Origin: a virus | Lineage: Duplodnaviria > Heunggongvirae > Uroviricota > Caudoviricetes | Strand: one strand, 5' to 3' | DNA length: 24,646 nucleotides | Virus record (IMG/VR): IMGVR_UViG_2663763286_000010 | Coordinates: 1-24,646 of that record | In this document: positions 1 through 24,646 of the stretch, in pieces | Layout of the letters: each line of letters opens with the position of its first letter | How positions within the stretch are numbered: the first letter of the stretch is position 1 | Translations under genes and position numbers: made by a program | Notes under the pieces: generated by a model | Told to the model about the DNA's origin: nothing | What the model saw: the letters and a program-made list of their open reading frames with translations, nothing else | The model's database searches: none

Positions 1-327
1 TCATTTTTTCCAGAGGCGGTCGAACTCCGCCTTCGCAAAATAAGCGGAAGCCTGGCGAAGGATATCGTTACTGCGGCGCAGTTCACGATTTTCACGTTCC
101 AGCTCTTTCAGACGCTGACGTTCAGCGGTGGTGAGTCCACCATCACCACTCCCGGTATCCCGCTCATGCTGACGAACCCACACACGCAGAGTCTCTGGTG
201 TACAGCCAATCTTTGGGGCAATGGAACAAATTGCCGCCCATTGTGAGTCATATTCGCCCTGACTTTCCAGAACCATACGAACTGCCCGTTGACGGACCTC
301 GGGGGAAAAACGAGTATTTTTAGTCAT
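1..327 (-). CDS. IS3-family transposase OrfA (helix-turn-helix plus leucine-zipper N-terminal protein), 108 aa
   Basis: [60 protein letters not shown]...[36 protein letters not shown] is a typical IS3/IS629-group OrfA; it sits directly inside the terminal repeat. Confidence 0.9.
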
Positions 328-381
328 CCTGTTTACCTCTTTCTCAGGGAGTTTAGTCTCCAGGATTTCCGGGGCGGTTCA
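1..381 (-). mobile_element. Partial IS3-family insertion sequence (IS629-like), terminal inverted repeat ending at 381; the rest of the element lies beyond the window start
   Basis: Reverse complement of 342-381 reads TGAACCGCCCCGGAAATCCTGGAGACTAAACTCCCTGAGAAAGAGG, an IS3-family terminal repeat (TGAACCGCC...) followed inward by orfA. A matching end occurs at 24486. Confidence 0.85.
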
Positions 382-933
382 CTTTCTGAGAATTTCTTCT
401 GTAATTGCGGACTGATCTATCGTGCCAGTAATACCCATTGTCCGGGCCAGGTCGTTTATGGGAATACTGATCATCCCTCTGGAAGTCAGAAACATCTCGC
501 CGAATGTGCCGCCGGTAGTCTCCAATGTGCTTTCTGGTATTAGAACTGTGCCATAGGGATGACGCTCAAGGTCCACCGGTGCATATATCGGATCCCATAA
601 AACAGAAATACCGTTAAATTCGCGGTAAATTGTCTGGTTTATAGGACGTTCAGTTCCCTTAAAGTGGATCTCATCAAGCCGCTGTTGTAACAACATCGGA
701 ACGGAAGATGAGTCCGAGGTTCTGATAGTAAAGAACTGGCCAAGTTCATTTGTCCTGGTCTCCAGATCCTCCTTGCTCATGGAGAAAATAGACTTCCGGT
801 TGGTAATTCGCTCCAACCATGGGTCAACAAAGGTGTCCATCATTGACTGAACCAAATCAGCCAATGATTTATAGAGCAATGACTTTTGCTTAGCTGATGT
901 AAGCCGGTTATTAAACCAGGAACGCTGCATCAC
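379..933 (-). CDS. Phage tail/baseplate morphogenesis protein, probably truncated at its 3' end by the IS insertion (position of P1 gene 16)
   Basis: 184-aa ORF whose stop codon TGA (379-381 on the minus strand) is the first three bases of the IS terminal repeat TGAACC; 4-bp start/stop overlap with the upstream gene (930-933). Product assignment is by position in the P1-like tail block only. Confidence 0.5.
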   Translation of the reverse strand: MMQRSWFNNRLTSAKQKSLLYKSLADLVQSMMDTFVDPWLERITNRKSIFSMSKEDLETRTNELGQFFTIRTSDSSSVPMLLQQRLDEIHFKGTERPINQTIYREFNGISVLWDPIYAPVDLERHPYGTVLIPESTLETTGGTFGEMFLTSRGMISIPINDLARTMGITGTIDQSAITEEILRK

Positions 934-2363
934 TCCTCCTCATACGAAATATTAAAGGTGGAGTTTTCTGTATCCAGATAAACGAAATCGTAAAAGCCGT
1001 TGGACTCATTCCACTCGACAAATTCCAGATAAAAGTCGCGGAAATAACCCAGCGTTTCGATAAACGCCCAAACGTCTTTTTTCTTAATCAGGATGTACTT
1101 CCCGACGCGGTTCGGATCAAAGAAAGTTGAGTCGCGCCCAAATTTTGTTTCCAGTGCCGACTTCAGCTCATCGGTCACATTCTCAATGGTCAGGCTTGCC
1201 GATATCCGTCCGGTGATGGTTATCTTAAATGGTAGTTTTCTGACCTCCTTATACGAGAATTTCTTGTTCAACTCATTCGGCACCTTCTTAAAGGCAGCCA
1301 GGATCATTTCTTCAAGCTCTGACTGGCTTTTATTTGGATGCCACCCTGAAATAAATATCTTATTGATATTCCGAACATTATAAGCACCATCTAATTTCTC
1401 TTGCTGGCCTTCGCCCCATGCCTTTACCCATGACAGTCCCGGGATGTTACGCACCAGAAAATACGTATAGTCCCCGCCCCATACGACCTGATCATCATAG
1501 GCAAGGTAATATTGTGCACGGTTACGTGTGATCTCCGTTGTTTCGGCATCGGTACCTGCGGTTATAGGTGTCGTTGTCTTAACTGAAATCAAATTAGCTA
1601 AATTAGCCGCAGAATCGACAGGCGTCAGGTTTTGGCCAGCAACCAGGGTTATATCGCCGTTGGTGCACCATACCTTAAGCGTAATGGTCGAGCCTTCTGG
1701 CGGTATTTGCCCAATTAGCCCATCACCGAATCGAACCCCCAACTGCTCGGATGGTTTATAAAACTCAACGTAGACCTGGCTTTTACTACCGGCTAACCGG
1801 AACATAGTGCTGGAAGACCACTGCGTGGTCTTACCATCGGTCGTCACGAATACTTCCAGCTTATAGCAGACAGCAGTGAGAGCCTTTGATAACACGACTT
1901 CCAGAAATTCTTTGGCTACCGTAACGGTATATGTCACCTCCTGGATTTCCAACTGTGCCACTTCTACCGTACCGGTGCCGTCAACCAACCTGCATACATC
2001 CATAGTCATGTAAGGGTACTGGTCGTCAGATATTAAAGGCATGTTTTTGGGGATTACCGCTGGGGCATCTTCACTTGTGGCGGTGATCTCAATCATCCCC
2101 GATGACGGTGTTGGCTTGGTACCAACGTAACTATTCGTTTCTGCCGCTGCCAGGATAGAGGAACGCCGCGTCGCGGTCGATATAAAGCCTTCAGCCAGCG
2201 CCGCATCGGCATACTGAAAGCACCTGTAGACAATCTGGGTAATAAACAATGTCAGCATCGAGACAAATTGAGAGCCGACAAACTTCGACCAGAATGAATC
2301 TTTCTCGACAAGCTCTTCGAACTCTGCACGAATACTGTCTTTAGTCGGTGTTGTTTTACTCAT
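930..2363 (-). CDS. Putative baseplate protein (position of P1 BplA)
   Basis: 477-aa ORF in the minus-strand tail block immediately downstream of sit and the 119-aa gene; overlapping stop/start junctions (ATGA at 2360-2363) typical of a phage morphogenesis operon. The name is by synteny with P1, not confirmed. Confidence 0.5.
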   Translation of the reverse strand: MSKTTPTKDSIRAEFEELVEKDSFWSKFVGSQFVSMLTLFITQIVYRCFQYADAALAEGFISTATRRSSILAAAETNSYVGTKPTPSSGMIEITATSEDAPAVIPKNMPLISDDQYPYMTMDVCRLVDGTGTVEVAQLEIQEVTYTVTVAKEFLEVVLSKALTAVCYKLEVFVTTDGKTTQWSSSTMFRLAGSKSQVYVEFYKPSEQLGVRFGDGLIGQIPPEGSTITLKVWCTNGDITLVAGQNLTPVDSAANLANLISVKTTTPITAGTDAETTEITRNRAQYYLAYDDQVVWGGDYTYFLVRNIPGLSWVKAWGEGQQEKLDGAYNVRNINKIFISGWHPNKSQSELEEMILAAFKKVPNELNKKFSYKEVRKLPFKITITGRISASLTIENVTDELKSALETKFGRDSTFFDPNRVGKYILIKKKDVWAFIETLGYFRDFYLEFVEWNESNGFYDFVYLDTENSTFNISYEEE

Positions 2364-2719
2364 AGCACCACGTCCTGTGTGATAGTTATATCCCTGATAC
2401 GAATGGATATTTTCAACTTATCAAAAGCATCTCCCTCGGCTACTGACAAGCCAGAAATCGGTATGTCAGGTAAATCTACCGTCAGTTTTTGCAACAGCAT
2501 TGCCTCAACCGCAATTTGAACATGCGACAAGTTGGTCGGTTCGTGTTTAAACTGCGGTAAAACATTGCCCCATGACGGATCTCCGTATACCTCACCCTGA
2601 TAAGTGTTTAGCCACTCATATAAACGAGCGCCCCAGGCCTCCTCCTGGGACTCATACGTTTTTACGCCGGATAACTCCAGCGTCAGCAAAGGATCAATTT
2701 CGTTATTGTTGGCCATCAA
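2360..2719 (-). CDS. Small tail morphogenesis protein (position of P1 PmgA)
   Basis: 119-aa ORF translationally coupled to sit upstream and the 477-aa gene downstream; no recognisable motif. Confidence 0.45.
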   Translation of the reverse strand: MMANNNEIDPLLTLELSGVKTYESQEEAWGARLYEWLNTYQGEVYGDPSWGNVLPQFKHEPTNLSHVQIAVEAMLLQKLTVDLPDIPISGLSVAEGDAFDKLKISIRIRDITITQDVVL

Positions 2720-5136
2720 TCAACTCTCGCGTAGTCATTCATCAACGGATCATCAATTGACAGTGGCACCGTGCGCATAACGCCCGGTTGAGGCGTGCTG
2801 ACCTTTACGACAGTTCCCTGGCCTTTCGCCGAGTCTTTAGTGTGCTCTTCAATCCTGGCGAGCAATGAGGTCATCTGCGCAAACAGCCGCTTCGTTTCAC
2901 CATCAAGTGAAACGGTATTATCAGCCAACTGCATTGTCGGCTTGGCACCGGAGCCGCCAAGGTCACTAATAACCTGTCCGTCTATCTGCATACGACCGGT
3001 TGGTTGCTGCAAATCGTTGGCGGCAGTCGTCACCAGGGACGTGGAGGCTGGTTCAGGCGCATTATTTTTCCGCATCCCCGGCGAGTTGCGGAGTTTATCG
3101 AATAGTCCATCAATCCCCATTTGTGCGCCGAGTTGGTCAAAGTAACTTGAGTTGCTGGCCACCGGACGCGCCTCTTCAACTGGCATCGGAGTATCAACAT
3201 ACACATTGCCAGCTGCTGTTGCGGTCCCCTTCCCTCGTGCACGTTCTTCGAGCGTTCCCTGAACGACTTCCCGACGCATACCCCGGCCATTCATGAATTT
3301 GTTGACCAGATCGTTAACACCAACAGCATTGCCAATTTTGTCTACCAGACCGCCTTTCTCAAACGGGCTATCACCAGGGGTAAACGCCAGGCCAGTAGAC
3401 TGATCGATAACAGCGTTATCAGGTATCTTTTCGTGAATTGCTGGTGCGCTATGATCTACCTTAGAGCCATAAACGGCACCATTATTGAGCATCTGCTGAT
3501 ACCCTCTGACACGAGTAACATATTCGCCGGTACCGGCGACTACTCTCCCCTTATCAACATGCCCCATACCAGCATGATAGGCAGCTATTGCACGACCCTG
3601 ATCACCGTTATAACGGTTCATCAGCATACTTAGGTATCTGGCGGCACCATCAGCTGCTTTTCGTGTATCCATGGCATCAGCATCGCTGAGTCCAAGATCC
3701 TCCCTTGTACCTTTAGTGATCTGAAAAGCCCCAAGGGCAGATGAAAGTTTGTTCCCGTTTTTGTCTACTGGATTTCCAGTTCTCTGGCCTGCACTAGACT
3801 CTGCGGATGCAACTGCTGACAGAATCCCTTTTTCAAGCCCATACTTACGTTCAAGCTCATCAAAATAATCGGCATTGTCAGAAATCCATTGGTATCCGGC
3901 AGCATTTAATTTTGGCAAAGAAACATCCTTGCCATTGTTAAATCGACGTTTATCTATCTCATATGCACTTAATGCTTCCTCCTTACCTGTAGCAGACTGG
4001 CCCAAGGCAGCATCAATTGTTTGTGCTGCTTTATTTCCTGTTTCTACGGCATTTGCATTGATAATCTGATTAGCAGTTTCTTTAACTGTTTTATTGCTAT
4101 CTTTCGCCATATCCAGGGCCGCATTTATCACGCGGGCAGCAATATTAGTCTGTTTGGCATCGGATTCAGCTTTAGAATCAGATGTCCCCTGCTGGCTATT
4201 AACCGGAGCTTTTAACTCTGGAGTGATTTCTTTCGCATTAGCCTCGCCGATCGGATTGGGTATTTTTGATACAATCATTGCCGCAGGGGTATTTTTAACG
4301 GCATCAACCGCTGCATCTAATGCTTTACCTGGTAAATTTTTAACCCCATCCCAAATATTACTAGCTGCCTCTTTAATGTGTTTCCCTGGGTTCTTAATGA
4401 AATCAATTGCACTATCAATTGCATCACTGAAAACCTGTTTCAGGTTATCGACAGTAAAGAAGTCTTTGATGGCATCCAGCTTTTCAAGCAGCTTATTAGA
4501 TGTATCGCTAAACCATGCTGAAACAGCATCACCAATCTTTGCTGTGTAATCATCGAACTTGGTAGAAATGGTGTCGCCAAGGTTAGAAATATATGTTTCT
4601 AAGTTGGTAATCCCACTATCAATGGCCTGGGCAATACTTTCCGTCGAAAATGATTGCAACATATTGCCGATATCCTCAAATCCAAGTGATTTGAGAACAT
4701 CACCAATAGCACTGCTAATACCAGATACCAGCCCCCCCAAATCAAGAACATTGGCTAACGTATAAGCGGCTTTTTGCTGGAATGATGGATCTTGTCCTGA
4801 TTTAAGCCCAAACGCTCGACGTTGCGCTTCTGTATCATTCCAACCGGTTACCGCATCATAAATACCTCCAGCCACTGTGCCGACTAGGGGAATTGCGCGT
4901 AACGCCCCTTTACCAACTGCCTTTAATCCAAGTTTACCTGCTGCCCGGGCAGCCAAATCTCCGCCTTCATGGGCGAGAGTCTTCTTGCCACCACCGCGTA
5001 GCATTCCTACAAGTTTCTTTGCCCCCAGAGCGCCAAAAGCGAGTGCTCCAGCTTTTTTCAGCATGCCACGCCCCATTAACAACGACGCGACGCCACCGGC
5101 CCCCTTCCCTAACAGGCTAAATAATTTGGACAGCAA
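2716..5136 (-). CDS. sit: Sit-like tail tape-measure / structural injection transglycosylase, C-terminal segment with lytic transglycosylase (SLT) domain; same reading frame as 5284-6081
   Basis: 806-aa ORF with Gly/Ala/Lys-rich N-terminus and an SLT-like segment (ILSAVASAESSAGQ...GAFQITKGTREDLG...AAYHAGMGHV). The listed start at 5136 is TTG; the frame is open up to a TAA at 5284-5286. Confidence 0.85.
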   Translation of the reverse strand: MLSKLFSLLGKGAGGVASLLMGRGMLKKAGALAFGALGAKKLVGMLRGGGKKTLAHEGGDLAARAAGKLGLKAVGKGALRAIPLVGTVAGGIYDAVTGWNDTEAQRRAFGLKSGQDPSFQQKAAYTLANVLDLGGLVSGISSAIGDVLKSLGFEDIGNMLQSFSTESIAQAIDSGITNLETYISNLGDTISTKFDDYTAKIGDAVSAWFSDTSNKLLEKLDAIKDFFTVDNLKQVFSDAIDSAIDFIKNPGKHIKEAASNIWDGVKNLPGKALDAAVDAVKNTPAAMIVSKIPNPIGEANAKEITPELKAPVNSQQGTSDSKAESDAKQTNIAARVINAALDMAKDSNKTVKETANQIINANAVETGNKAAQTIDAALGQSATGKEEALSAYEIDKRRFNNGKDVSLPKLNAAGYQWISDNADYFDELERKYGLEKGILSAVASAESSAGQRTGNPVDKNGNKLSSALGAFQITKGTREDLGLSDADAMDTRKAADGAARYLSMLMNRYNGDQGRAIAAYHAGMGHVDKGRVVAGTGEYVTRVRGYQQMLNNGAVYGSKVDHSAPAIHEKIPDNAVIDQSTGLAFTPGDSPFEKGGLVDKIGNAVGVNDLVNKFMNGRGMRREVVQGTLEERARGKGTATAAGNVYVDTPMPVEEARPVASNSSYFDQLGAQMGIDGLFDKLRNSPGMRKNNAPEPASTSLVTTAANDLQQPTGRMQIDGQVISDLGGSGAKPTMQLADNTVSLDGETKRLFAQMTSLLARIEEHTKDSAKGQGTVVKVSTPQPGVMRTVPLSIDDPLMNDYARVD

Positions 5137-5283
5137 GCCGCCCTTCTTTTTCCCGGTGTTTTTGGCTATCTGATCAAGGGCGCTGAGAATCTTGTCATTG
5201 CCCTCTTTAATTTCGCTGGTCTGATCCTGAAGTTCCTGAACCGTCCGTTTTTGGGTGTTAACCTGAACGACATCGGCACTATT

Positions 5284-6081
5284 TTACGATTTACGCCTAA
5301 AAAAACCTTTTCTACGGCTGTTATCGTCATTGCCACGAATCACATCGGCAATAGACTTTCTGGCACCATTAAGCGATCCACCAACTTCTTTTGATATCCC
5401 GCCAAGCTCCTTCCCTGCGGCCCACAATGGACCAGCAACGGCATAACCTAACGCATCGACGGCACGAGTCTCTGAAGGGTTACCTATGCCTTCAGCTACT
5501 TTTGACAGTTTTTTTAATAAACCTGATTCAGCATTTAGACGCTCATCATCCTCTTTGCGCCTGGCCTTTTCAGCACGGGCATCTTCCGCTGCGGCCTTAC
5601 TCCCTGACTTTCCAATAAAACGACCACGCGCATCGCGTTGGTTTTGGCTTTTTTGCGCACCGCCTTTTTGACCGAACATTTCGCGAGCGTGTTCGGCTGC
5701 TTCGGTCCGTTGCGCCTTTACATCTTCTGTTATAGCCTTCTTGCGTCGTTTTTTACCCTTTCGCGTAGTTGATTTGGCCTGCGGTTCCTGTAGAGCAACA
5801 TCCTCCTGAACTACACGAGAAACGTCCCCTAAATTAAGCCGTTTCATTGCCTCAACAATAGGGTCCACTGATGGCGCATTGGCCACAAAGTCTGGCCGGG
5901 AATTTTCGATTGTGCGATTTAATGCCGACACACTGCGAGAGACAGGATCAACTGTAGCAACTCGCCCCCCTTTCAAATCTTCAACGGCTTCCCGAATACC
6001 TGCAAGCTCTTCCAGCTCTTTTGCGCTGGCGGTTTCAACCGTCCTTATCACATCGTCAATGTTGGCGTTTTTTCTTTCCAT
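5284..6081 (-). CDS. sit: Sit-like protein, N-terminal segment (265 aa), terminated by an in-frame TAA that separates it from the 2716-5136 segment
   Basis: Same frame as 2716-5136 ((5284-2716) is divisible by 3); translating 5137-5283 by hand gives 49 sense codons and no stop. The stop lies next to an A7 run (5299-5305). Confidence 0.7.
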   Translation of the reverse strand: MERKNANIDDVIRTVETASAKELEELAGIREAVEDLKGGRVATVDPVSRSVSALNRTIENSRPDFVANAPSVDPIVEAMKRLNLGDVSRVVQEDVALQEPQAKSTTRKGKKRRKKAITEDVKAQRTEAAEHAREMFGQKGGAQKSQNQRDARGRFIGKSGSKAAAEDARAEKARRKEDDERLNAESGLLKKLSKVAEGIGNPSETRAVDALGYAVAGPLWAAGKELGGISKEVGGSLNGARKSIADVIRGNDDNSRRKGFFRRKS

Positions 6082-6162
6082 GATCTTATCGCCTACCGCT
6101 TCGGTTTAAGTTTTTCTTCCAGTTTCTCCAACAGGAAAAACGCATAGGATTCAGTGAGCCTT

Positions 6163-7044
6163 TCAGCGTCCTGAATCGGTATACCCCCATACAAAACCAG
6201 GTTGGACACTAAGGTCTGATAGCTTTTCAATCCCCACCTGTGGAATGAAGTCGGTAGCCCGAAAGGGCACCCACAGACGGGTATACGCACCCTCTGTGGA
6301 CTCCTTTGTATCCTGGTTTGGGCATTTGTGCGGCGGGAGACGAAGACGCATTTCGCCTTTATCGATGTAGCACGGTAAACCATGTTCGAGCTTTTCATGA
6401 GCCAGCCGGATGTGTGCCGCCAGCTTCATAAATTCAGTATCAATGGCCATCCGTTTAATCGTTTCATAACGACGCTCAGCCTGATCTTCACGAGTACCGC
6501 TAACATCGTTATAAAGCTCACACTGATAAGCGAATTCCCAAAAACGCAAATCAACGATCGCTTCTTTGAATTCCGCGTCGTCTTCAGGTGGCAATGCTGC
6601 ACGGCGCATCTCCAGCATTTCCATTGCCCAACCATCAAGCGGCACGATACGCCATTGATAAGGTACTCCCTCTACAGACACCTCAATATCGTCAATGAAA
6701 GGTTCCACTTCCAGGACCTGGATATCTTCAGCCAGAGCATTCATATCACAATCGTAATAATGCTCTTTACCGCAATGTTTACAGGTGTAGGTGAATGTCT
6801 CGACCGGTGTTTCACGGGAGCCAGTAAATATCCACCATAACGCGGTAATCCGGTCCTGCGCCGTCCATGTCAGGGGATCATATTTCGCGGGTTCAGCCAG
6901 CAAGGCTTTTAAATACGCCGTTGTCTGTTGTTCTTGTTCCTCCGGTGTTATCGAGTTGAAACGCATCGCATCAGCAATATTTGGCTGACGGAACTGGATC
7001 AATTCGGTTGGCCGCGATGGTAGCGGGAAAAGAGGTAAAAGCAT
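6163..7044 (-). CDS. Tail morphogenesis protein (position of P1 PmgB)
   Basis: 293-aa ORF just upstream of sit on the same strand; contains a CxxC pair (CKHCGKEH). Name by synteny only. Confidence 0.45.
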   Translation of the reverse strand: MLLPLFPLPSRPTELIQFRQPNIADAMRFNSITPEEQEQQTTAYLKALLAEPAKYDPLTWTAQDRITALWWIFTGSRETPVETFTYTCKHCGKEHYYDCDMNALAEDIQVLEVEPFIDDIEVSVEGVPYQWRIVPLDGWAMEMLEMRRAALPPEDDAEFKEAIVDLRFWEFAYQCELYNDVSGTREDQAERRYETIKRMAIDTEFMKLAAHIRLAHEKLEHGLPCYIDKGEMRLRLPPHKCPNQDTKESTEGAYTRLWVPFRATDFIPQVGIEKLSDLSVQPGFVWGYTDSGR

Positions 7045-7058
7045 CCTTGCTCCTTAAT

Positions 7059-7670
7059 TCAAAGAGAAAAGCTAAAGCCCAGAAGGGAAGCCAAAGAACT
7101 TGAGGATTGGTTAAACGTGCTGTGCAATGCGAAGGTCATTGGGAATGACTTAAATTCCGTAACCTGATCCCGCGCATAGGTGACATCGCCGGTAGTGACC
7201 GGGAATACCGTCATCTCATTTTCCAGTTTGGTTAAGCCGGAAGACAGCAACCGATAAATACGCACATTGAGCAAATATTTAGATGGTATGTTCCCGGTAC
7301 CGTCAGGATTGATCACCCGACTTTTTGCCGTCTTAAACCAGTCCAAAACGAGGCCATCAACAGTGTCCCTGACCATCATTGTTATCTGCCCAGGCGAACG
7401 CTCCGTTGGCTGAAGGATATTCCCCCCGCCGATTTTAATCGTTTCATATTCGATGCTGTAATCGTGGTAGGTAATGTCTTTGGCAAAGAAGTCTGCCCCC
7501 TCCAGTCCATCAACTTCGACAGAGAACTGCCATCCTTGCGCGAACAGCATTTTGTTCATGATGATTGACGTCAGCTTACCAACTTCCCGCTCACCAACGC
7601 CGGAGCCAAATAATGTCGTCGTTAATGCCGAAGATACATAAGACTTTACTGAAGCAACATTAAGCCCCAT
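7059..7670 (-). CDS. Putative tail tube protein (position of P1 Tub)
   Basis: 203-aa ORF in the tail block, 14 bp after the previous gene; size and position fit a tube-type protein in P1-like phages. Not confirmed by motif. Confidence 0.4.
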   Translation of the reverse strand: MGLNVASVKSYVSSALTTTLFGSGVGEREVGKLTSIIMNKMLFAQGWQFSVEVDGLEGADFFAKDITYHDYSIEYETIKIGGGNILQPTERSPGQITMMVRDTVDGLVLDWFKTAKSRVINPDGTGNIPSKYLLNVRIYRLLSSGLTKLENEMTVFPVTTGDVTYARDQVTEFKSFPMTFALHSTFNQSSSSLASLLGFSFSL

Positions 7671-7680
7671 ATCAGCCCCC

Positions 7681-8288
<608 letters not shown>

Positions 8289-8401
8289 TTGTCATTTGTT
8301 ACCGGTCAGTCTACACATTTCAGATACTACGTTAAAACAACTCAAGTGCTTCAAGTAGCAAATCGCCATCAACACCCAGCCCAAAGATGCGGAGATAAAA
8401 T

Positions 8402-11075: not shown

Positions 11076-11085
11076 GGCCGTAACT

Positions 11086-14483: not shown

Positions 14484-14569
14484 TACAATCGTTGCGGGTG
14501 CTTGAGGCTATCTGCTTCAGGCATTACCCGAAAAGCAGATAGAAGAAAGCCCCAGATAACATTATGTGT

Positions 14570-14820: not shown

Positions 14821-14899
14821 GAGACCTGGCGGGGAGAGATCCCCGCCACTCTTCGTGTGTCAGGTATCCTCAATGTACCCTTTCCTCTCCAAATTAAAA

Positions 14900-15446: not shown

Positions 15447-15457
15447 ATAAAATCCTT

Positions 15458-16039
15458 TTACTGGAACGCCCGAACAATATCGGAGCTGTTATATATCGAA
15501 GAACCGGTCAACTGGAGGTTGACGGTGTTTTTCAGGAAATATCCATTACTGTCCCTTGGCGCATCGAGATCAAAACTTAAGTCCTGGATGGCGACATCGG
15601 TGATGTTGATCCGGCGACCAATGTTTAGCGTCACGCGCTCCGGGATTCGACCACCAACATTGGCCGCTTTTAGTTCCGGGCTAATCATGGCTGTCAACGC
15701 GGCGATAGCGCCTGAAACTTCAATGAATGGATTGTTCAAAGCAATGAAAGTTACAGGCAGCGTGAACGTCGGCGGAGTCCCCCCTTCCCAAACCATTAAG
15801 CTATTCCAACGGGCAACCGACGTTGTTTCAGTACCTACTTGCACAAAACCACCCAGAGCACCAGAAACAGATCCCATGGACATACCGGTAAACGGCGCTT
15901 CCCAATTCTGGGCCATGTTCATTGCCGCTCCCTGGCTGATATATCCGGTAACCTGGTACTGAGAGTTCGTTAAAGTAACTTTCAGAAATGGTGATACACC
16001 GTCAGCCTGGCTGTAAACCCCATAAGGTATAGGTGCCAT
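15458..16039 (-). CDS. Virion morphogenesis protein (position of P1 PmgG)
   Basis: 193-aa ORF with SD AAGGAGG upstream; no recognisable motif. Confidence 0.4.
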   Translation of the reverse strand: MAPIPYGVYSQADGVSPFLKVTLTNSQYQVTGYISQGAAMNMAQNWEAPFTGMSMGSVSGALGGFVQVGTETTSVARWNSLMVWEGGTPPTFTLPVTFIALNNPFIEVSGAIAALTAMISPELKAANVGGRIPERVTLNIGRRINITDVAIQDLSFDLDAPRDSNGYFLKNTVNLQLTGSSIYNSSDIVRAFQ

Positions 16040-16074
16040 TCAAGTTAAAGGCCGGAGTTCTCCGGCCTCCTCCT

Positions 16075-16890
16075 TTAGCCAAGGCGCTTACGGCGCAGTT
16101 TCATTGACTTTTTGCGGGCAAGTTTTGCCGCGCCGGTCTGGGCTTTTCGACGCGCTTTTTTCAGCGCCGATTTTTGAGCCGCAGTCAGACGTTTTTTACG
16201 CAGGCGTTTACGGATGAGTTTGATCTCACCGTTACGAACAACCTTCTTAAATGCTTCAGTCAGCATTTCATCAGAAGTGCCAGCAACAACAAACGCCGCT
16301 TCCAGTTCGTCACGGTCGTCGCTATCTAAACCAGCGATAGAGGCACCAACATCAGCAGCTGCGTCGTCGTCTTCATCGTCAGCCAGTGCTTCGATCAGGT
16401 CATCATCTACACCGCATGCTGCGAGGAAGTCAGCAACATTTGCCCATGCTTCGTTATAGGCATCGTCCTGTTCTTCTGTAACTTCGGAGTCGTCGTCATC
16501 AGAGATACCAGCGATAGCCTGAACGAAACCATCAAGGGAGTCGAAAGTCAGATCACCGCTATCAGCCCAGGCGAAAACGGCGTCGGCCGCATCACTCAAC
16601 GCATTCTGCATAGCACTTCGATTTGCAGCTTCCAGAATCATCTGGTGCGCCTGTTCGACGGTCCATTCTTTACCGTCTTTCCCTTCCAGGATTTGCTCAG
16701 GATCCGGGGCAGATGGAACGTTATCGTTAGTCTGTGCCGCCGGTTCCGGATTATTATTAATAACCGGATCTGTTGGCGGTTCGGCGCTTGCTCGGGCAGA
16801 CTCCATCAGCTGCACAGGATCAGAGTTCAAAGCGAAACGAGACAGTCCATTCCCCAAAAATGCCCCGGATTGAAAAAAGTTTTTGCTCAT
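16075..16890 (-). CDS. Hypothetical virion-associated protein with a strongly acidic central region and a highly basic Lys/Arg-rich C-terminal tail (position of P1 gene 21)
   Basis: 271-aa ORF; central stretch rich in D/E (DDDDSEVTEEQDD, ADDEDDDAAAD) and C-terminus KLIRKRLRKKRLTAAQKSALKKARRKAQTGAAKLARKKSMKLRRKRLG. Confidence 0.5.
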   Translation of the reverse strand: MSKNFFQSGAFLGNGLSRFALNSDPVQLMESARASAEPPTDPVINNNPEPAAQTNDNVPSAPDPEQILEGKDGKEWTVEQAHQMILEAANRSAMQNALSDAADAVFAWADSGDLTFDSLDGFVQAIAGISDDDDSEVTEEQDDAYNEAWANVADFLAACGVDDDLIEALADDEDDDAAADVGASIAGLDSDDRDELEAAFVVAGTSDEMLTEAFKKVVRNGEIKLIRKRLRKKRLTAAQKSALKKARRKAQTGAAKLARKKSMKLRRKRLG

Positions 16891-16899
16891 TGTATTCCC

Positions 16900-18489
16900 T
16901 TACTTAATAAGCAGCGGTACGCCCTGGATACGACGGGCTACGCCAGTCGGGCAGCAGGCCCAGACTACTTCCCATTTATCGAATTCCGCCTGCGTAACTT
17001 TCAGCACATACGGTTCTGTACCGTCAGCATCAGGATCACGAGGAGCCACCAGAGCGCCGGAGGCGACAAAGCGATCTAAAAGTTTGGTCATCCCTTTAGT
17101 CAGGCCAGCCGCAGTAATACCGTCCGGGCTATGCTTCATCTGTCGGGCTAACTGGACAAAGAAACGGCTGATTGCATTCATCAGGGATGGGACGTGCTGG
17201 AAGTGCAGATAGTTATCCTGCGTGCAGCAAGTTAAAGCATCGTCGATGATCATCTGGCCAGAGGTGCCAACAGATACTTTATTGAGACGGCCCTTGACCA
17301 TTGCTTCTTCGTCCGGGGTATCTTCCGGATACAGCGGTTGAATTGACGCACGAGCAATGACGGCACGTTCTTCACCAGCCGGTGAGTAATGCCAACCGCC
17401 GACATCAGAGTTTTTCTTGACGCCACGAGCTTTCGCCGCATACGCCGCGCCAGACAGACCGAAGACCACACGGGATTGGGTCCATTTGTCTTTGCAGGAG
17501 AACGGGAAGTGATAGACAGCACAGCTTACATAATCGGTACCAAGTAAACCGGTATCTTCAACAGCAGAGAGCGCTTCCGTATACGTCAATGTCGGTTTGA
17601 CATCAAAGAAGCCATCAATCAGGCGATCAGAACAGATATTACCTAACGCGGTGATCGCCGCATTGTCATAGCAACCCAGGCCGAGAACAGCGGTGTACAT
17701 GTACGGCGCATTGTTCAGCACCTTAACCGCACGCAGGTACGCAGCGGTTGAGATTTTCGACTGATCACCGTTGGTACCACCAGTGAACGCCAGCGATTTT
17801 TTATTTGTTACTTTCGCCGTCGAAATCAGCTCTTCATTAACAACCGCGCGCAGATATTTAGAACGGGCTTCCAGAGCCGTAGGCAGATAACACAAGCGGC
17901 CCATGTCATCTTTCGCTTCTTCCGCCAAAGACACAGTGTGTGTCTCCAGGGTCGTTACCACGCCGAGCGAAGTCGTCTGGGTCAGTTTTAAGAGGAAGCG
18001 TTCATTACCCGCGCTGTCCGCTGTTGCCGTTTCGATGGTTAACTCACGGGTAGGTGAAATACACGGATCACCATCATCAACGTAGATAGCAAAGGCTTCG
18101 CCACTATCAAGTTCAATTTCAGAACCGTATGGCAACGCACTGTAAGCCGGTTCGCCTGATTCATCGAACATAATAATCGGGAACTTCGCATCATCCGGAA
18201 CAGCACGAACAACATAACCTGACGTTTGCTGAATAGCTTCGTATACATGGCGAATTGGTTCGAACTGTGAGCCGGAAGACGGCTTCAGCGGTTCGCCGAG
18301 AACATCTTCGTAATTGGACTCAGTAACCGCAAGAACAGTAAACGGCTTGCCACGCGCAAATACGCCAATACCAGCCCACAAGCTGCTATTTAATGCAACA
18401 CCGGTAGATAACGTCGCATCGGCATTGATCGGGCTAACCGCGACGCCGGATGCATTACCTAATGACTGTTGAATTGAATATTGAGACAT
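16900..18489 (-). CDS. Contractile tail sheath protein (position of P1 gene 22)
   Basis: 529-aa ORF; C-terminal region FGLSGAAYAAKARG...GGWHYSPAGEERAVIARA resembles the conserved sheath-family W-x-A/S-P-A-G motif region. Confidence 0.65.
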   Translation of the reverse strand: MSQYSIQQSLGNASGVAVSPINADATLSTGVALNSSLWAGIGVFARGKPFTVLAVTESNYEDVLGEPLKPSSGSQFEPIRHVYEAIQQTSGYVVRAVPDDAKFPIIMFDESGEPAYSALPYGSEIELDSGEAFAIYVDDGDPCISPTRELTIETATADSAGNERFLLKLTQTTSLGVVTTLETHTVSLAEEAKDDMGRLCYLPTALEARSKYLRAVVNEELISTAKVTNKKSLAFTGGTNGDQSKISTAAYLRAVKVLNNAPYMYTAVLGLGCYDNAAITALGNICSDRLIDGFFDVKPTLTYTEALSAVEDTGLLGTDYVSCAVYHFPFSCKDKWTQSRVVFGLSGAAYAAKARGVKKNSDVGGWHYSPAGEERAVIARASIQPLYPEDTPDEEAMVKGRLNKVSVGTSGQMIIDDALTCCTQDNYLHFQHVPSLMNAISRFFVQLARQMKHSPDGITAAGLTKGMTKLLDRFVASGALVAPRDPDADGTEPYVLKVTQAEFDKWEVVWACCPTGVARRIQGVPLLIK

Positions 18490-18549
18490 AACTTTCCCTG
18501 TTATGCGCCCCGCACGGGGGCGCTATGTTAAACGGAGAACTTCCCCTGA

Positions 18550-20277
18550 TTACTCAGAGTCACCGGCATCAATCGTGTCGCCGCTTATGAAGTTAAGCCC
18601 GCCTTTTTTGGCCATTGTCAGCGTTACACGAGTGAAGTAATCAGCGCCGTTGCGTGGGTGCATATCGTTGATAGCAGAACCCCACAGCGTGGTACGGTTG
18701 ACCAGCGCCGGAGTGGTCGGATGCTGGAACGGGATGGCCGGGACAGCATCACCAGTCACGAAGCCTGCTTTACCCGGATTTTCATCACGGACGTAGCACA
18801 GCACATCCATCGAGCTGAACTGAATGTTCTCTGTCGTTAAGTTCTTACAAATACCAGCAGGTACTTCGTACACTTTCACGTTACCGAACAGGGTACCGAT
18901 GTAGTGAACATACGGAGTCTGGATATAGTCTTCGGCTGGCTGGAAGAAATCCTTCGGCAACTGTTTGAAGAAAGATGCTGCATCAGCACCAGCAAACATC
19001 CCCATCGCACCAGAAGATTTAACCCGCTCAATAATGTCGCGATATACAGTCTGGAATTTGCCACGAATGATGGTTGCCCATACATCAAAGGACTGGTTAA
19101 CCGGCAGAGCGATGTCAAAGGTGTCGGTCGCAAGAGTGCGCCAGATCATGATGCGAAGACGCAGCATATCCTGTTCATGAGACAGGTATTCCTTCAGGGT
19201 GCGGAACTGTAGGGAACCCAGGTCCAGACCAAATTCACGCTGTGCTTCATACGCCGCCTGTACCGTGTGCTCAGCCGCGATAACGAACTGACTTGGGAAC
19301 AGGGTGTATTTCTTCATTTCGTGGTTGATCAGCGGGATCAGCTCAGGAGCGGCTTCAATATTGATTTCCGTCTCAATTGCGATCTCAGTGCCTTTATCCG
19401 GCGCTTTGGAGAACGACAGGGCAATCTGACCAATGTTGTAGTTCAGAGAGCAGGTAACAGTGATTTGCTCACCAGCAGCATTAGTAAACGAGTGAAGTAG
19501 GCTGCCGGAACCGTTATCAACAACAGACTTAATACGGTTAACGTAGATGTTAGTGCGACCTTTTCGGATTGGTACATTCTGGCCTTCGAAGTCTTCCATC
19601 TTGAAGGTTGCGGTTTTGCTGGTGCCATCGGAGCTTGCCACCAGCACATAGCGGCGACGTAACTGGCTGTACACACCGACGGATTGCATGTCCAGAACAT
19701 CACCAGCAGCATAAGAACCAAAAGAGGAACCTGCCACGTTAAAGACTTCATAGATGTCGGACTGGTCACGCGTAACCGGAATGAAGGTACACGCATCAGC
19801 GGTAGCTGCCCCCAACTGAACAGGCAGGATCATCGCGAGGAATAAAGGCAGACGCATAACACCGTCAGAAACGCTCATCATCTCTGCTGCGACGGATTCC
19901 AACATCGCTTTATTAGTGGCATCCATGCTATTGCGGGTGGACTCAATCAGGCAGTTTTCCAGCGTCTGGTGGCAGGAGGCCAGAATTTCCGGACGCGGCA
20001 TAGATTTATGTGCTGCGGCGTAGTCAGCCAGTGCACTTGCCCACGCTGTAGCGATTTGAGCGGTGGCATTATCAGAGATACCCGCAAAAACCGGGTCTTT
20101 ACGTGCAGCTTCAAGGATAGATGCGGCACGCGCGGCATCATCTTTAATGAATTGGTTATCAGTACCGAACTGCGCAGTGCTTGCCCAGCCAAGCACAGCT
20201 TTAGAGCGTTTTGCGATATCTGCAATACGATTCTGGTATTCGCGTAAGTTACTCAATTTACTCTTCCTTAAACACAA
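18550..20277 (-). CDS. Large virion structural protein, candidate major head protein (position of P1 gene 23); start codon uncertain
   Basis: 575-aa ORF from a TTG at 20277; a second in-frame TTG seven codons downstream has an AGGAAG Shine-Dalgarno; the first ATG is about 90 codons in. Assignment by size and position next to parS as in P1. Confidence 0.45.
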   Translation of the reverse strand: MCLRKSKLSNLREYQNRIADIAKRSKAVLGWASTAQFGTDNQFIKDDAARAASILEAARKDPVFAGISDNATAQIATAWASALADYAAAHKSMPRPEILASCHQTLENCLIESTRNSMDATNKAMLESVAAEMMSVSDGVMRLPLFLAMILPVQLGAATADACTFIPVTRDQSDIYEVFNVAGSSFGSYAAGDVLDMQSVGVYSQLRRRYVLVASSDGTSKTATFKMEDFEGQNVPIRKGRTNIYVNRIKSVVDNGSGSLLHSFTNAAGEQITVTCSLNYNIGQIALSFSKAPDKGTEIAIETEINIEAAPELIPLINHEMKKYTLFPSQFVIAAEHTVQAAYEAQREFGLDLGSLQFRTLKEYLSHEQDMLRLRIMIWRTLATDTFDIALPVNQSFDVWATIIRGKFQTVYRDIIERVKSSGAMGMFAGADAASFFKQLPKDFFQPAEDYIQTPYVHYIGTLFGNVKVYEVPAGICKNLTTENIQFSSMDVLCYVRDENPGKAGFVTGDAVPAIPFQHPTTPALVNRTTLWGSAINDMHPRNGADYFTRVTLTMAKKGGLNFISGDTIDAGDSE

Positions 20278-20395
20278 GGCACTTGTGTGAATCCCTTTTC
20301 GGAAGAGATTTTATTGAAAGTCACTTGTTGACTTTCTCGTGACAAGTAATTTTTTTATTTTTTTCGGGAGTAGGGGAGGAAGGTAAAATCCAAGG

Positions 20396-20480
20396 TGAAA
20401 TCGTGGCGATTTCACCTTGAAATTTTAGAGGCATTTACTTTAAAAACAGTAGGTTAATAGTGAAATTTGAATGGCGAAAG
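20396..20480. promoter_or_regulatory. parS: parS partition site (heptamer box A ATTTCAC/ATTTCAA and hexamer box B TCGCCA motifs flanking an AT-rich IHF-type spacer)
   Basis: Sequence GTGAAATCGTGGCGATTTCACCTTGAAATTTTAGAGGCATTTACTTTAAAAACAGTAGGTTAATAGTGAAATTTGAATGGCGAAA directly after the parB stop; matches the P1 parS organisation. Confidence 0.85.
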
Positions 20481-20481
20481 T

Positions 20482-21483
20482 TTAAGGCTTCGGCTTTTTA
20501 TCGAGGCTCTTTCTAAGGATATGCCCAATCATCCTGTCGAGTTCTTCCTGTAGCTCTTTTGAAAGTCGATTAAACTCATAAGAAAATGCACGGCCTTTCA
20601 CGCGCTTCCTTGCAAAGCGATCCTTGTCCTCAAATTTCCATAATTCAGTAACTACGGACTTATCTTTAGAACCTTTATCCGTGAGTAGTGAGGCTTCCTT
20701 TGTTATCAAGCGCAGGATTTTATTTTTAACTTCATCTTCGGCCATTTCTTCAATGGATAAGATGTCGTTTATTTCCGGGGATATGTTTTGAATAAGCTGA
20801 TCAAACTCTAAATTCTTGTTCCCCATTTCGTCGCCAACAGCACAAAGCGTTTTGTAGTCCGAAAAGGTTAATTCCGACTGCACAGGGAAAAGGGCGACTA
20901 ATTCTTCCGGAGCACTCGCTGCCTGGAGAGCACGCGTGACCTTCGCCTGAGACAGCCCTTCTTTGGCTGCAATATCCTTCTGACTCATCCCATCATTTTT
21001 CATTCGCATCAAACGCAGACCTATTTCTCGAATGCTGTGCTGCAATGCTGTCTGAACGTCTTTCGCTAAATTTTGCGCTTCCTGAACGCTGATCTCCTGG
21101 TCCGTGACTAAAACCCGCAACCCTACGTTCTCTAAGATGGCAGAAGCTCGACGCCGGGAACCATCCAAAATTTCAATTTTCCCTGTAGCCCGTCTAACAC
21201 CTATTGCAGGGTAAAATTGCTGATGCTTAATAGTGCTTCGGATACTTTTTAATGATTTTGGCGTAAGAGATGCCTGATCACGCCCGTTGTTATGCTGATC
21301 AACAAAGGTATCGCTTTCTACCTGGTTCGGAGGAATTATCTCCTCGATAAATGTGGCCTGGCGACCAGTTGATAACTTGAATACCTGCTCGACTCGATCG
21401 CCAGAGGCTGAAGAACTATCAAATCCGCTTAATATTGAAGGATTAAGGGTTCGCCCAATTGTTGGTCTGTTTTTCTTTGACAT
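20482..21483 (-). CDS. parB: ParB partition protein (centromere-binding), P1 type, 333 aa
   Basis: ORF MSKKNRPTIGRTLNPSILSGFDSS...; ParB-fold motif GRRRASAILENVGLRVLV; immediately downstream of parA and upstream of parS. Confidence 0.95.
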   Translation of the reverse strand: MSKKNRPTIGRTLNPSILSGFDSSSASGDRVEQVFKLSTGRQATFIEEIIPPNQVESDTFVDQHNNGRDQASLTPKSLKSIRSTIKHQQFYPAIGVRRATGKIEILDGSRRRASAILENVGLRVLVTDQEISVQEAQNLAKDVQTALQHSIREIGLRLMRMKNDGMSQKDIAAKEGLSQAKVTRALQAASAPEELVALFPVQSELTFSDYKTLCAVGDEMGNKNLEFDQLIQNISPEINDILSIEEMAEDEVKNKILRLITKEASLLTDKGSKDKSVVTELWKFEDKDRFARKRVKGRAFSYEFNRLSKELQEELDRMIGHILRKSLDKKPKP

Positions 21484-21499
21484 GGGGGTTTCTTACTCC

Positions 21500-22696
21500 T
21501 CAGTTAGATCTGATAAATTCAATACGGTCAAAAACTGCTTTAGCAAAATCTTCCGCGGCAATTCGCGCGTTCTTCAATGCATCAGCACTACCAACATACG
21601 TTGCCGGGTTAGCTGAAATAACAGTGTCAAAAGACTCGCCGCAACGTTCAAAACCGTCAAGGCGTGGGAGGACGACATCTAGCATATCCCCACCGAACAC
21701 TTCTTTAGCCAGGCTATGGCAATACTTATGATCTGCCTTGTTACTCAACTTGGACATAAAACCAATGTTAGTCGCAAGCTGGCACTCGCAGCCTTCATCC
21801 GAAATGAGTTTCACCAACTCAGGAAGGCGGGCAACGTATTTAAGCGATGAGTGGAAATCGACAGTTGCTGGCGGCAGAGGTGTAAACAGTATATTGGCCG
21901 AGGCCAAAGCATTTTTCAGGAAGGCGTCAAGGTGAGGACCACTATCAACGAGGATAAAGTCATAATCGCTCTTCAGCTTATCAATCACATTTTCTTTCAG
22001 GACAGCATGGATGTTCTGACCCGGTAGATGCTCATTGCACAGCTCTCTCCAATCGGATGCAATAAAGGCATCGTCAATCGACGCAGGCATAACGTCAACC
22101 CCAGGTACAACAGAAGGAACAATAAACTCCTCTAACAGCTCTTCACGGCTTACATTCTGCAACATAGCCTGTGCAGATGTTGCGTTTACGATACCAATAG
22201 AGTGTTTATGGCTTAAAAACATCGTTGCTGAAGATTGCGGATCAAGGTCAATAACCAGAATCCTTAAATCTTCCATCAGAAGATGAGGGTGGGCACGCAT
22301 TGCATGCGCCAGAGAAACCGTCGATACAGTTTTTGACACACCGCCTTTAAGATTGGAGATGAAAATCACATACGCTTCGCTGTAGCGATCCCGGTATTTT
22401 GGCACTCCGCGATGTTCATATATGTCAATGATGTTCTGAATTGACATCGCATATTTCATTGAAGAGCCAGCAGGGCGTTTATCGAAAACATAACCCTTTT
22501 CTTCCATTTCACTTACGGCATAGTCAACGTTCGCTCGAGTCAGTAGAGGCAATTTTGCCAGTGCCGCTTTCGCATAGACCTGGTAAAACTCGTTCGCGTG
22601 TAGCTCATCCTTTTGCAACTGTACTTGTTCAGTCAGAACATTGAGCATTCTGTTTGCTCTTTGAGCAACCTTGTGAAGCTGGCTGGAATCACTCAT
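21500..22696 (-). CDS. parA: ParA partition ATPase (type Ia, with N-terminal DNA-binding extension), P1 type, 398 aa
   Basis: Deviant Walker A motif SNLKGGVSKTVSTVSLA; long N-terminal extension typical of type Ia ParA; operon with parB. Confidence 0.95.
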   Translation of the reverse strand: MSDSSQLHKVAQRANRMLNVLTEQVQLQKDELHANEFYQVYAKAALAKLPLLTRANVDYAVSEMEEKGYVFDKRPAGSSMKYAMSIQNIIDIYEHRGVPKYRDRYSEAYVIFISNLKGGVSKTVSTVSLAHAMRAHPHLLMEDLRILVIDLDPQSSATMFLSHKHSIGIVNATSAQAMLQNVSREELLEEFIVPSVVPGVDVMPASIDDAFIASDWRELCNEHLPGQNIHAVLKENVIDKLKSDYDFILVDSGPHLDAFLKNALASANILFTPLPPATVDFHSSLKYVARLPELVKLISDEGCECQLATNIGFMSKLSNKADHKYCHSLAKEVFGGDMLDVVLPRLDGFERCGESFDTVISANPATYVGSADALKNARIAAEDFAKAVFDRIEFIRSN

Positions 22697-22699
22697 CGA

Positions 22700-22969: not shown

Positions 22970-23254
22970 GATGTGTGCTGGAGGGAGAATAAAAGTCTAA
23001 GATGTGCGATAGAGGGAAGTCGCATTGAATTATGTGCTGTGGAGGGATCGCTGGTATCAAATATGTGTGCTGGAGGGAAAGACAGAGAATTACATGTGCA
23101 CTGGAGGGAAAAGCGGATGGACAGATGTGTGCTGGAGGGAAAGACTGGGCAAACTGAGGGGCGTCCCCCTCCAGCGCACATCAAAAACAGGAAATTGGAC
23201 AAGCCTTCCCGGCAGCACACATCTTTTTAATGCGGTTTCCCTCCAGCACACACT
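22970..23254. repeat. incA: incA: nine 19-bp RepA-binding iterons (six in one orientation, three inverted) downstream of repA
   Basis: Repeats of GATGTGTGCTGGAGGGAAA-like sequence at about 22970, 23001, 23031, 23063, 23094, 23125 and inverted copies (TTTCCCTCCAGCACACATC-like) at about 23164, 23206, 23237. Confidence 0.9.
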
Positions 23255-24114
23255 TATTCGGGGAGTTTCAGCTTTGGATTGCGAGAATGGACGATTACAA
23301 AACTTTCCCGGCCTTTCTTCTCAATTGAACAGTCGAGATAGCCGATTGTTTTAAGCTGTTCTATCGCTTTCTTAATGATACGGTTTTGCTCGCCAACAGC
23401 TGACTGCAAAGCCAGGCGCTCACGGATTCGCGCGAACGATAGTGGCAACGGGTTCTGCGGAAGGCTTTCGATGAAGGTGTAAATGGCTTGTGCAGCTTCT
23501 TTCTTGGGAAGGGCACGCAAGGCGTGGTGTTGCAACAGAACGCGATAATCAAGCTGGAACAGCTCCCACAGCTTCGAATCAGCCTCCAGCTCTATCAGAT
23601 CAAGGTCAGCATCAAAACGCCCGACCTTCAGCAGACCAGTCTGATAGCCGCCTTTAGCATCTTTTCCGCGCTTAAAAGCGATACCCTTGTTACGCAAGCG
23701 TCCAAGTGATTCATGAATGGTTAAACGCAGTTTCGCATCCAGACGTTTTGAGGGGAAACCACAGGCTTTAGCGAATTCCTGAAACGATAACTGGATGGTG
23801 TTTGAGGACAAGCCGTATTTGCTGAACGCGTAGATGACACCGATCCACGTTTTGAAATCAGTATCCATATCGAGTCGAGGACCGGTGATTTTAATATCAT
23901 CGTAACCCTCGGCTTTAGCTATCTCCAGCTGGGAAAACGCTTTGGTAGCATCAATCTCTTTACTTTCTCCTTTGCTCTTTGATGGCTTCGGCACGAATAC
24001 CCCCAAGCGCATCAACGCTACAGGCTGCACAGTGTTGTTTGAATTAACTGTTAGTTCTTTTGCCTTACTTTCAATGTCTGCGTAAAGAATATCGGAGATA
24101 AATGATTGATTCAT
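23254..24114 (-). CDS. repA: RepA plasmid replication initiator (iteron-binding), P1 type, 286 aa
   Basis: ORF MNQSFISDILYADIESKAKELTVNSNN... flanked by incC iterons upstream and incA iterons downstream, exactly the P1 R-replicon layout. Confidence 0.95.
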   Translation of the reverse strand: MNQSFISDILYADIESKAKELTVNSNNTVQPVALMRLGVFVPKPSKSKGESKEIDATKAFSQLEIAKAEGYDDIKITGPRLDMDTDFKTWIGVIYAFSKYGLSSNTIQLSFQEFAKACGFPSKRLDAKLRLTIHESLGRLRNKGIAFKRGKDAKGGYQTGLLKVGRFDADLDLIELEADSKLWELFQLDYRVLLQHHALRALPKKEAAQAIYTFIESLPQNPLPLSFARIRERLALQSAVGEQNRIIKKAIEQLKTIGYLDCSIEKKGRESFVIVHSRNPKLKLPE

Positions 24115-24123
24115 ATTACTTTT

Positions 24124-24395
24124 TCCGAATTATGTGGATAGTTTTTATAAGCGGTGATAACTACCCAGGCTTTCCCGTCAGCACACATCCTATATCCCGC
24201 CAGCACACATTAGCAACCCGTCAGCACACATTTTTTTCCCTCCAGCGCACATCATTTTCCCTCCAGCACACATCGCGAAAGGCTTCTAAGCCAGACGGGG
24301 CGCGGCCTACGACGATCAGGGATCTATATGGATCTAATTGGGATCTGTATGGACCTGATTATTGGATCTATCCAGTGGATAATGTGGATAAGTGA
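24124..24395. promoter_or_regulatory. oriR plasmid origin of replication: DnaA boxes at both ends (TGTGGATAG at 24133-24141 (8/9 match); GTGGATAAT/TGTGGATAA at 24375-24391), five GATC Dam sites in 7-bp repeats (about 24314-24370), and the incC iterons
   Basis: Five GATC sites in GGATCTA/GGATCTG heptamers; DnaA box consensus TTATCCACA present as reverse complement; arrangement matches the P1 oriR. Confidence 0.85.
24170..24274. repeat. incC: incC: five 19-bp iterons overlapping the repA promoter (part of oriR)
   Basis: Five tandem copies of TTTCCC(G/T)(T/C)CAGCACACAT-like sequence at about 24170, 24192, 24214, 24235, 24256. Confidence 0.9.
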
Positions 24396-24485
24396 AAAAC
24401 CGGCCACTGAGGACCGATTTCTGTGAAGGGTTGAAGCGAATTAGTTGTCGTTTTCCGTACCTACTTCTTCGATCAACAAACTACT

Positions 24486-24646
24486 TGAACCGCCCCGGGT
24501 TTCCTGGAGAGTATTTTATCTGTGAACTCAGGCTGCCAGATCATTATTTCCGATGGAAGCATAATAAGCTTTTTCTGCTTCTGCCGGAGGAATATGGCCC
24601 AGCCTTTCCAGCAATCGTCGATTGTTATACCAGTCCACCCACGTTA
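24486..24646 (-). mobile_element. Partial IS3-family insertion sequence (IS629-like), terminal inverted repeat starting at 24486 and extending beyond the window end; same orientation as the copy at 1-381
   Basis: TGAACCGCCCCGGGTTTCCTGGAGAGTATTTTATCTGTGAACTC at 24486 onward is the opposite-end repeat to the one at 342-381 (imperfect inverted repeats). Confidence 0.85.
24528..24646 (-). CDS. IS3-family transposase OrfB, C-terminal 38 codons only (gene continues beyond the window)
   Basis: Minus-strand translation ...TWVDWYNNRRLLERLGHIPPAEAEKAYYASIGNNDLAA* ends 41 bp inside the terminal repeat, as expected for an IS3-family orfB. Confidence 0.7.
   Translation of the reverse strand, partial: TWVDWYNNRRLLERLGHIPPAEAEKAYYASIGNNDLAA

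Follow-up and report, generated by a model that had tools for sequence, protein, structure and literature searches.

P1-like DNA between two IS629 ends

The stretch of DNA analyzed here (hereafter, the window; 24,646 bp, IMG/VR record IMGVR_UViG_2663763286_000010) carries a segment of a P1-like phage-plasmid that ends, on either side, in part of the insertion sequence (IS) IS629. Look-up of the truncated gene 16 product encoded near its left end identified the window as the whole of contig JXWD01000056.1 (24,646 bp), from the short-read draft assembly GCA_000948825.1 of Escherichia coli. The DNA between the two IS ends, positions 382–24485 (24,104 bp, against the ∼24.1 kb of P1-like DNA claimed in an original prediction made from the sequence alone), aligns as one piece and at 98.0% identity to the plasmid pUSDA5905_1 (NZ_CP039843.1), which is uninterrupted and in which the P1 backbone carries on at both sides of the matching segment; the same interval aligns to P1 itself (NC_005856, 38653–62923) in four blocks. 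P1 features were placed by transferring the P1 annotation onto the window (with an offset of −2018 for the parS-parA region) and are collected in Table 1. The window shares with P1 and pUSDA5905_1 the gene orders 16-bplA-pmgA-sit-pmgB-tub-pmgC ... c4-icd-ant-kilA-repL and bplB-pmgG-21-22-23-parS-parB-parA-incA-repA-oriR-upfA, and differs from both by IS629 in gene 16 and in upfA and by a nonsense codon in sit.

The left IS end contains a complete orfA for 108 aa on the minus strand (1–327), whose product matches PF01527 (HTH_Tnp_1), and finishes at position 381 with the terminal inverted repeat ...GGGGCGGTTCA. The right IS end opens at 24486 with TGAACCGCCCCGGG, the right inverted repeat (IRR), and holds the last 38 codons of orfB, which is likewise read from the minus strand and whose stop codon lies at 24528–24530. 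Read inward, the left inverted repeat (IRL) and the IRR both begin TGAACCGCCCCGG... and agree at all of the first 13 and at 22 of the first 25 positions, i.e., they are imperfect terminal inverted repeats with the 5'-TG/CA-3' ends found in the IS3 family. When the two ends are joined into a single 542-nt query, all 542 nucleotides are identical to single 1310-bp elements in many E. coli O157:H7 chromosomes; in the example that we fetched (NZ_AP018488.1, 2129386–2130695), window positions 1–381 are the last 381 nt of the element and 24486–24646 its first 161 nt. Its annotation is that of an IS3-family transposase with programmed frameshift; an AL1L pseudoknot is also annotated in such copies. 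For comparison between isoforms, the IS1203 on pEcoUTI1e shows 62 differences over 1310 positions. Both window ends are O157-type IS629, in the same orientation and from opposite ends of the element, as had been claimed for an IS3-family element with its transposase on the minus strand.

IS629 (isoforms IS1203 and IS3411) is the most abundant IS of E. coli O157:H7, and IS629-type sequence turns up in 4244 of 5426 complete E. coli genomes (median, 4 places per genome; maximum, 52). Short-read assemblers stop at such multi-copy repeats, and a contig with the IS on both ends is therefore an artifact to be expected wherever a replicon has two copies. The window ends are 100% identical to IS629, but only 381 + 161 nt of it lie in the window; the middle 768 bp of each copy are off the contig, leaving orfA whole and orfB reduced to its last 38 codons. 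The two IS ends can be of one isoform and could even belong to one copy, and the triplets that adjoin them differ (ctt at 382–384, act at 24483–24485). To say that the segment is bracketed by two IS copies is to describe the ends of a contig, not a demonstrated structure. The contig starts exactly at the stop codon of IS629 orfA (window 1–3), beside the A-rich frameshift window, which may be a position where the IS copies of this genome differ and the assembler branched.

At the right-hand side of the segment lies a P1-type (IncY) set of parS, parB, parA, incA, repA, and oriR that, judged by comparison with P1, is complete and intact, in line with the original prediction. The 286-residue RepA is identical to P1 RepA, and the parA and parB open reading frames (ORFs) have the size and position that they have in P1. 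The parS site is identical to that of P1 at 102 of 106 aligned positions, with none of the four differences in an annotated ParB box. A search for iterons returned 11 matches where none are expected by chance; within incA (22970–23254) seven iterons are found with at most three mismatches, the whole interval being colinear with P1 incA, which has nine. In the alignment oriR is nearly identical to P1 oriR, with its iterons, five GATC sites, and DnaA boxes conserved.

The exact P1 RepA is also encoded on contigs of 4.4–8.6 Mb (L024, L026, L027, L030, and L032), and on several of these it adjoins IS elements and ordinary chromosomal genes; they could represent chromosomally integrated P1-type replicons or P1-derived vector sequence.

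Table 1. Features of the window, with coordinates in window positions
Feature	Position	Strand	Basis or remark
IS629, left copy, IRL-proximal 381 bp	1–381	−	Rest of element off contig
Gene 16 (baseplate/tail-tube protein), cut after codon 183 of 278	379–930	−	PF26903 (Phage_P1_Gp16), P1 annotation
P1 tail/baseplate operon	930–8247	−	P1 annotation transfer
bplA	930–2363	−	
pmgA	2360–2716	−	
sit	2716–6090	−	
pmgB	6163–7044	−	
tub	7059–7670	−	
pmgC	7681–8247	−	
Three non-P1 ORFs in the place of simABC	8402–10686	−	Gene calls, Pfam
immI and lytic replicon	10756–14187	+	P1 annotation transfer, P1 alignment
C1 operator Op51	10756–10772	+	
c4 a1b1 targets	10833–10885	+	
C4 RNA	10954–11039	+	
icd	11086–11307	+	
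ant1	11304–12347	+	
C1 operator Op53	12426–12442	+	
kilA	12512–13312	+	
repL/oriL	13342–14187	+	
hok/sok post-segregational killing locus	14496–14820	+	
sok	14496–14670	+	Rfam, 115 bits
hok ORF	14665–14820	+	
P1 virion genes	14937–20256	−	P1 annotation transfer
bplB	14937–15446	−	
pmgG	15458–16039	−	
Gene 21	16075–16890	−	
Gene 22 (sheath)	16900–18489	−	
Gene 23 (major head protein)	18550–20256	−	
Partition module	20395–22696	−	P1 annotation transfer
parS	20395–20477	−	
parB	20482–21483	−	333 aa
parA	21500–22696	−	398 aa
Plasmid replicon	22970–24412	−	P1 annotation transfer
incA iterons	22970–23254	−	
repA	23254–24114	−	286 aa
oriR	24171–24412	−	Five GATC sites
incC iterons	24171–24274	−	
DnaA boxes	24374–24391	−	
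upfA remnant, last 14 codons and stop	24441–24485	−	133-aa pUSDA5905_1 type
IS629, right copy, IRR-proximal 161 bp	24486–24646	−	Rest of element off contig

The segment is cut within gene 16 and upfA

Comparison with complete P1-like plasmids places both IS copies inside P1 backbone genes, and pUSDA5905_1 continues as P1 beyond the corresponding points. On the left, IS629 interrupts gene 16, and the TGA stop codon of the truncated gene is formed by the first three bases of the IS. On the right, the IS cuts upfA 45 nt before its end, so the first 119 upfA codons are not on the contig; it starts 74 bp past the annotated end of oriR, which is untouched for that reason, and 94 bp from the DnaA boxes (the original prediction had given about 90 bp). 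The segment therefore ends, on either side, at an insertion point within a P1 backbone gene (gene 16 or upfA) and not at the edge of a module. The description of the window as a replicon and partition module between IS copies holds insofar as the replicon and par set is complete, but about 85% of the segment belongs to virion, immunity, and lytic-replication functions, and the ends are those of the contig.

The gene 16 junction recurs. In the protein collection that we searched the truncated gp16 is encoded on 14 contigs, all 14 of which stop at the IS, and the gene16::IS junction is present in at least seven other assemblies or read sets. Over the 3.7–10.5 kb of plasmid DNA on the contigs with truncated gp16, only one to three substitutions separate them from the window, which indicates stable vertical inheritance. 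One source is the Shiga toxin-producing E. coli (STEC) O177:NM strain 2010C-4558 (JHMZ), isolated in 2010 (PMC4125765), and others include recent read sets. These sequences show the gene 16 insertion to be real, common to a lineage, and stably inherited.

A second lesion affects sit, in which codon 269 of 1124 is a TAA nonsense codon (window 5284–5286, minus strand) where relatives have CAA, so that the gene falls into two ORFs (265 and 806 aa). The sister contigs L004–L006, which share the gene16::IS junction, have CAA, with G at position 5286, and an intact 1121-aa Sit; the nonsense codon is therefore either private to this isolate or due to a sequencing error.

In more than 20 contigs (L011–L023 and L062–L070), which come from unrelated isolates and metagenomes, the first base lies within −3 to +5 nt of the IS629 site in gene 16. 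These contigs carry no IS bases, and those that extend furthest have native sequence upstream. The clustering could reflect a hot spot for insertion, a mosaic boundary of the tail-fiber module, or a duplicated 16'-R-S segment. In another P1-like lineage (L011, L064, and L069; ∼2418–3574 of L011), the tail-fiber gene S is cut to 535 aa by another IS3-family element, which has no blastn match to IS629. Partial gene 16 products that begin at codons 183–185 (P0030, P0031, P0034, and P0036) were considered as the missing far side of the gene 16 junction and rejected, since their contigs have no IS bases, the longest-reaching have native gene 16 sequence upstream, and none stems from a sample shown to have the near-side junction.

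Searches across the two junctions

We searched for both junctions in finished replicons and in larger collections. A 300-bp query across each junction found no place covering at least 80% of either query in the 5,426 complete E. coli genomes, and the whole window found no record with either junction in PLSDB (72,556 plasmids) or in a phage collection; an apparent full-length match to pEcoUTI1e was rejected, as its IS1203 copy lies at a different site, next to R. The gene 16 and upfA sites are in this respect absent from the complete genomes and plasmids searched. Scans for the exact near-side junction patterns gave no match in IMG/VR, the JGI metagenomes, or the GTDB representative genomes, and a scan of IMG/VR only gave none to the predicted far-side junction in upfA. 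Sister contigs with the right-hand junction were also sought through the alleles of RepA, ParB, gp22, and PmgG; these alleles proved too widespread for this purpose (466 to 33,548 index blocks), and none of the loci fetched through them is closer than ∼99.3% to the window.

Intact lytic genes without c1

The segment includes icd-ant, kilA, and repL, all intact behind the conserved C1 operators Op51 and Op53, but neither c1 nor any similarity to C1 is found in the window. In P1, c1 lies at 93.2–94.1 kb, more than 30 kb away from the window's segment. Unrepressed kilA and repL lead to lethality or runaway replication. With C1 operators and intact lytic genes but no c1 in the window, a copy of c1 is therefore expected elsewhere in the cell, and this need for c1 in turn speaks for the presence there of the remaining P1 genome. 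An excised circle or a transposed copy of the segment would, alone, probably be harmful. Recombination between direct IS copies would likewise be self-limiting, one product having both replicons without the repressor and the other the repressor without a replicon.

Two independent Logan assemblies of sister isolates (L004 and L005) both break near window position 10854, in the c4 a1b1 target element, which suggests a second, diverged c4/immI copy in these genomes.

Origin of the two IS ends

The reading that we favor, and hold with a little more belief than doubt, is that of two separate simple IS629 insertions into a resident P1-like plasmid, with P1 continuing beyond each. In favor of this reading, the segment matches an uninterrupted P1-like plasmid as a single colinear stretch, the insertion points lie inside genes, and published work places 62% of IS629 copies in prophages (PMC3271280); the recurrence of the gene 16 junction and the c1 copy expected elsewhere in the cell count for it as well. 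The window would then represent about a quarter of a ∼95-kb P1-like (IncY) phage-plasmid, whose contig would halt at each side at an IS629 copy that is multi-copy and not bridgeable by short reads, one copy lying in tail gene 16 and the other in upfA just outside oriR; the remaining P1 genome, c1 included, would be on other contigs. P1 thus probably continues beyond both IS copies.

Replication relies on the usual P1 machinery, in which RepA binds the incC iterons in oriR, where DnaA boxes and Dam sites also take part, and the incA iterons hold the copy number down; ParA, ParB, and parS segregate the plasmid, and hok/sok kills any cell that loses it. Essential virion genes are not intact (see gene 16 in Table 1 and sit above), and the phage is presumably defective: the IS in gene 16, with the sit nonsense codon added in this isolate, would leave no tail assembly, and the element would then pass on vertically, as a plasmid, having given up its spread as a phage. 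P1-like phage-plasmids that carry transposases, and defective plasmid derivatives of them, have been documented (Pfeifer and Rocha 2024, PMC10879196). The window resembles those derivatives in its relation to P1, in the retained replication and partition functions, and in the presumed loss of phage structural function, and transposases are common among such elements; it differs in that the loss stems from a point mutation and an IS insertion that is recent, while on this contig most virion genes are intact and large-scale gene loss is not seen.

Several observations weigh against this reading. The far sides of both IS copies lie off the contig and were not found. For the upfA side, the product predicted from a simple insertion is either UpfA(1–120) ending at the TGA of the IS or, if the target duplication is 4 bp, UpfA(1–119) followed by 10 residues; twelve allele variants of this upfA-5'/IS product are absent from a collection of 15 billion proteins that does hold the truncated gp16, and C-terminal fragments of gene 16 with IS-derived leader residues were not found in a look-up. 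These negatives are weak, since the lineage may carry alleles other than those tried and P1-like backbones differ by ∼2%. The differing flank triplets fit two insertions but also one recombinant IS. Finally, matching target duplications flank only 21 of 47 copies in O157 genomes (PMC3271280); rearrangements associated with IS629 are therefore common, and one or both junctions could be rearrangement joints.

The last point leads to the strongest alternative, an IS629-mediated rearrangement in which at least one junction is not a simple insertion and the DNA beyond that IS is not the neighboring P1 sequence. The joint could stem from an adjacent deletion, from recombination with a third IS629, or from fusion with another replicon or the chromosome, and the contig would still be P1-derived and maintained as a plasmid. 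We regard such an origin as possible but on balance unlikely. In its favor, IS629 copies without matching target duplications are in the majority in O157 (PMC3271280), neither upfA nor gene 16 yielded a predicted far-side product, and P1-like plasmids are highly mosaic, with many defective derivatives; the weakness of the negative look-ups cuts the other way, as do the need for c1, which speaks for most of P1 remaining in the cell, and the fact that no foreign junction was observed.

We think it very unlikely that the window stems from a self-contained molecule or unit, be it a 25.4-kb IS629-closed mini-P1 or a 26.7-kb composite, that has both P1 replicons, par, and hok/sok, is without a c1 of its own, and is able to move a complete plasmid replicon between replicons. 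In the first form there would be a single IS629, and the contig would be a closed circle of 25,414 bp (24,104 bp of P1 plus 1310 bp of IS), a mini-P1 plasmid arising by recombination between two direct IS copies or by an IS-adjacent deletion. The IRR at 24486 and the IRL at 381 are oriented so as to join via the missing 768 bp, differing flank triplets are what a recombinant IS should show, the segment has replication, partition, and post-segregational killing functions, and the absence of far-side junction products would follow as well. Such a circle would, however, carry intact kilA, repL, and icd-ant behind C1 operators without c1, which is lethal or gives runaway replication if unrepressed, and the stability of the gene 16 junction in many isolates is hard to reconcile with it unless c1 is given in trans; taken by itself, this origin strikes us as highly improbable.

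The least credible origin, that of a composite transposon in which a pair of direct IS629 copies moves, or has moved, together with the enclosed 24.1 kb as one 26.7-kb unit with a plasmid replicon, would account for two ends of one isoform in direct orientation, whose outer ends would make a proper IRR/IRL pair, but neither the junctions nor the unit occur elsewhere in 72,556 plasmids, 5,426 E. coli genomes, IMG/VR, the JGI metagenomes, or the GTDB representatives, every homologous segment found runs on into P1 backbone, P1 genes are interrupted at the inner boundaries in the manner of insertions into P1 and unlike imported cargo, and no outer ends or common target duplication are visible in the contig.

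Tn9 (IS1-cat-IS1), first found on P1Cm, is a composite transposon with direct IS repeats. The window is like Tn9-type composites in that its segment lies between ends that fit two copies of one IS in direct orientation; this segment, however, is 24 kb of the recipient backbone and not imported cargo, and there is no evidence of movement as a unit. Mobilization as a composite unit, raised in the original prediction, is accordingly not supported, an IS-bounded unit having been found in no other context among the collections searched; deletion via the direct IS repeats, suggested alongside it, is a formal possibility only, for which we found no evidence.

Variable regions of the segment

Two regions of the segment depart from P1. 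The first lies in the place of the superimmunity genes simABC, where alignment to P1 gives no match over 8301–10519 and three unrelated ORFs are present: one of 394 aa with a weak SH3_3 match, one of 168 aa that is YfjT-like and has a signal-peptide-like N terminus, and one of 163–172 aa. The cargo at this spot varies among P1-like plasmids. In the second region (14202–14895), hok/sok and an ORF for a putative membrane protein of 108 aa (14157–14483) replace rlfA, rlfB, and pmgF of P1. The hok/sok locus occupies this place in pUSDA5905_1 too but not in P1, and hokD is annotated at the matching place in relatives; other P1-like plasmids have an IS605-type TnpB, a ParA-like gene, or an Ail/Lom protein there.

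Implications

Every component of the window is already known, from the P1/IncY replicon and par to the genes for virion and immunity, hok/sok, and IS629. Insertion at these points of gene 16 and upfA is not seen in the finished genomes searched, yet it adds only further cases of a very common event. Were the segment a transposable replicon or a closed mini-plasmid, it would be a natural example of IS-driven replicon capture; nothing that we found points there. The window illustrates that an IS-bracketed cassette can be mimicked by a draft contig whose ends fall in a multi-copy IS. For the biology of these elements, an E. coli lineage that includes STEC O177:NM has inherited, for more than a decade, a P1-like plasmid with gene 16 knocked out by IS629, which is a further example of a phage-plasmid drifting toward being a mere plasmid.

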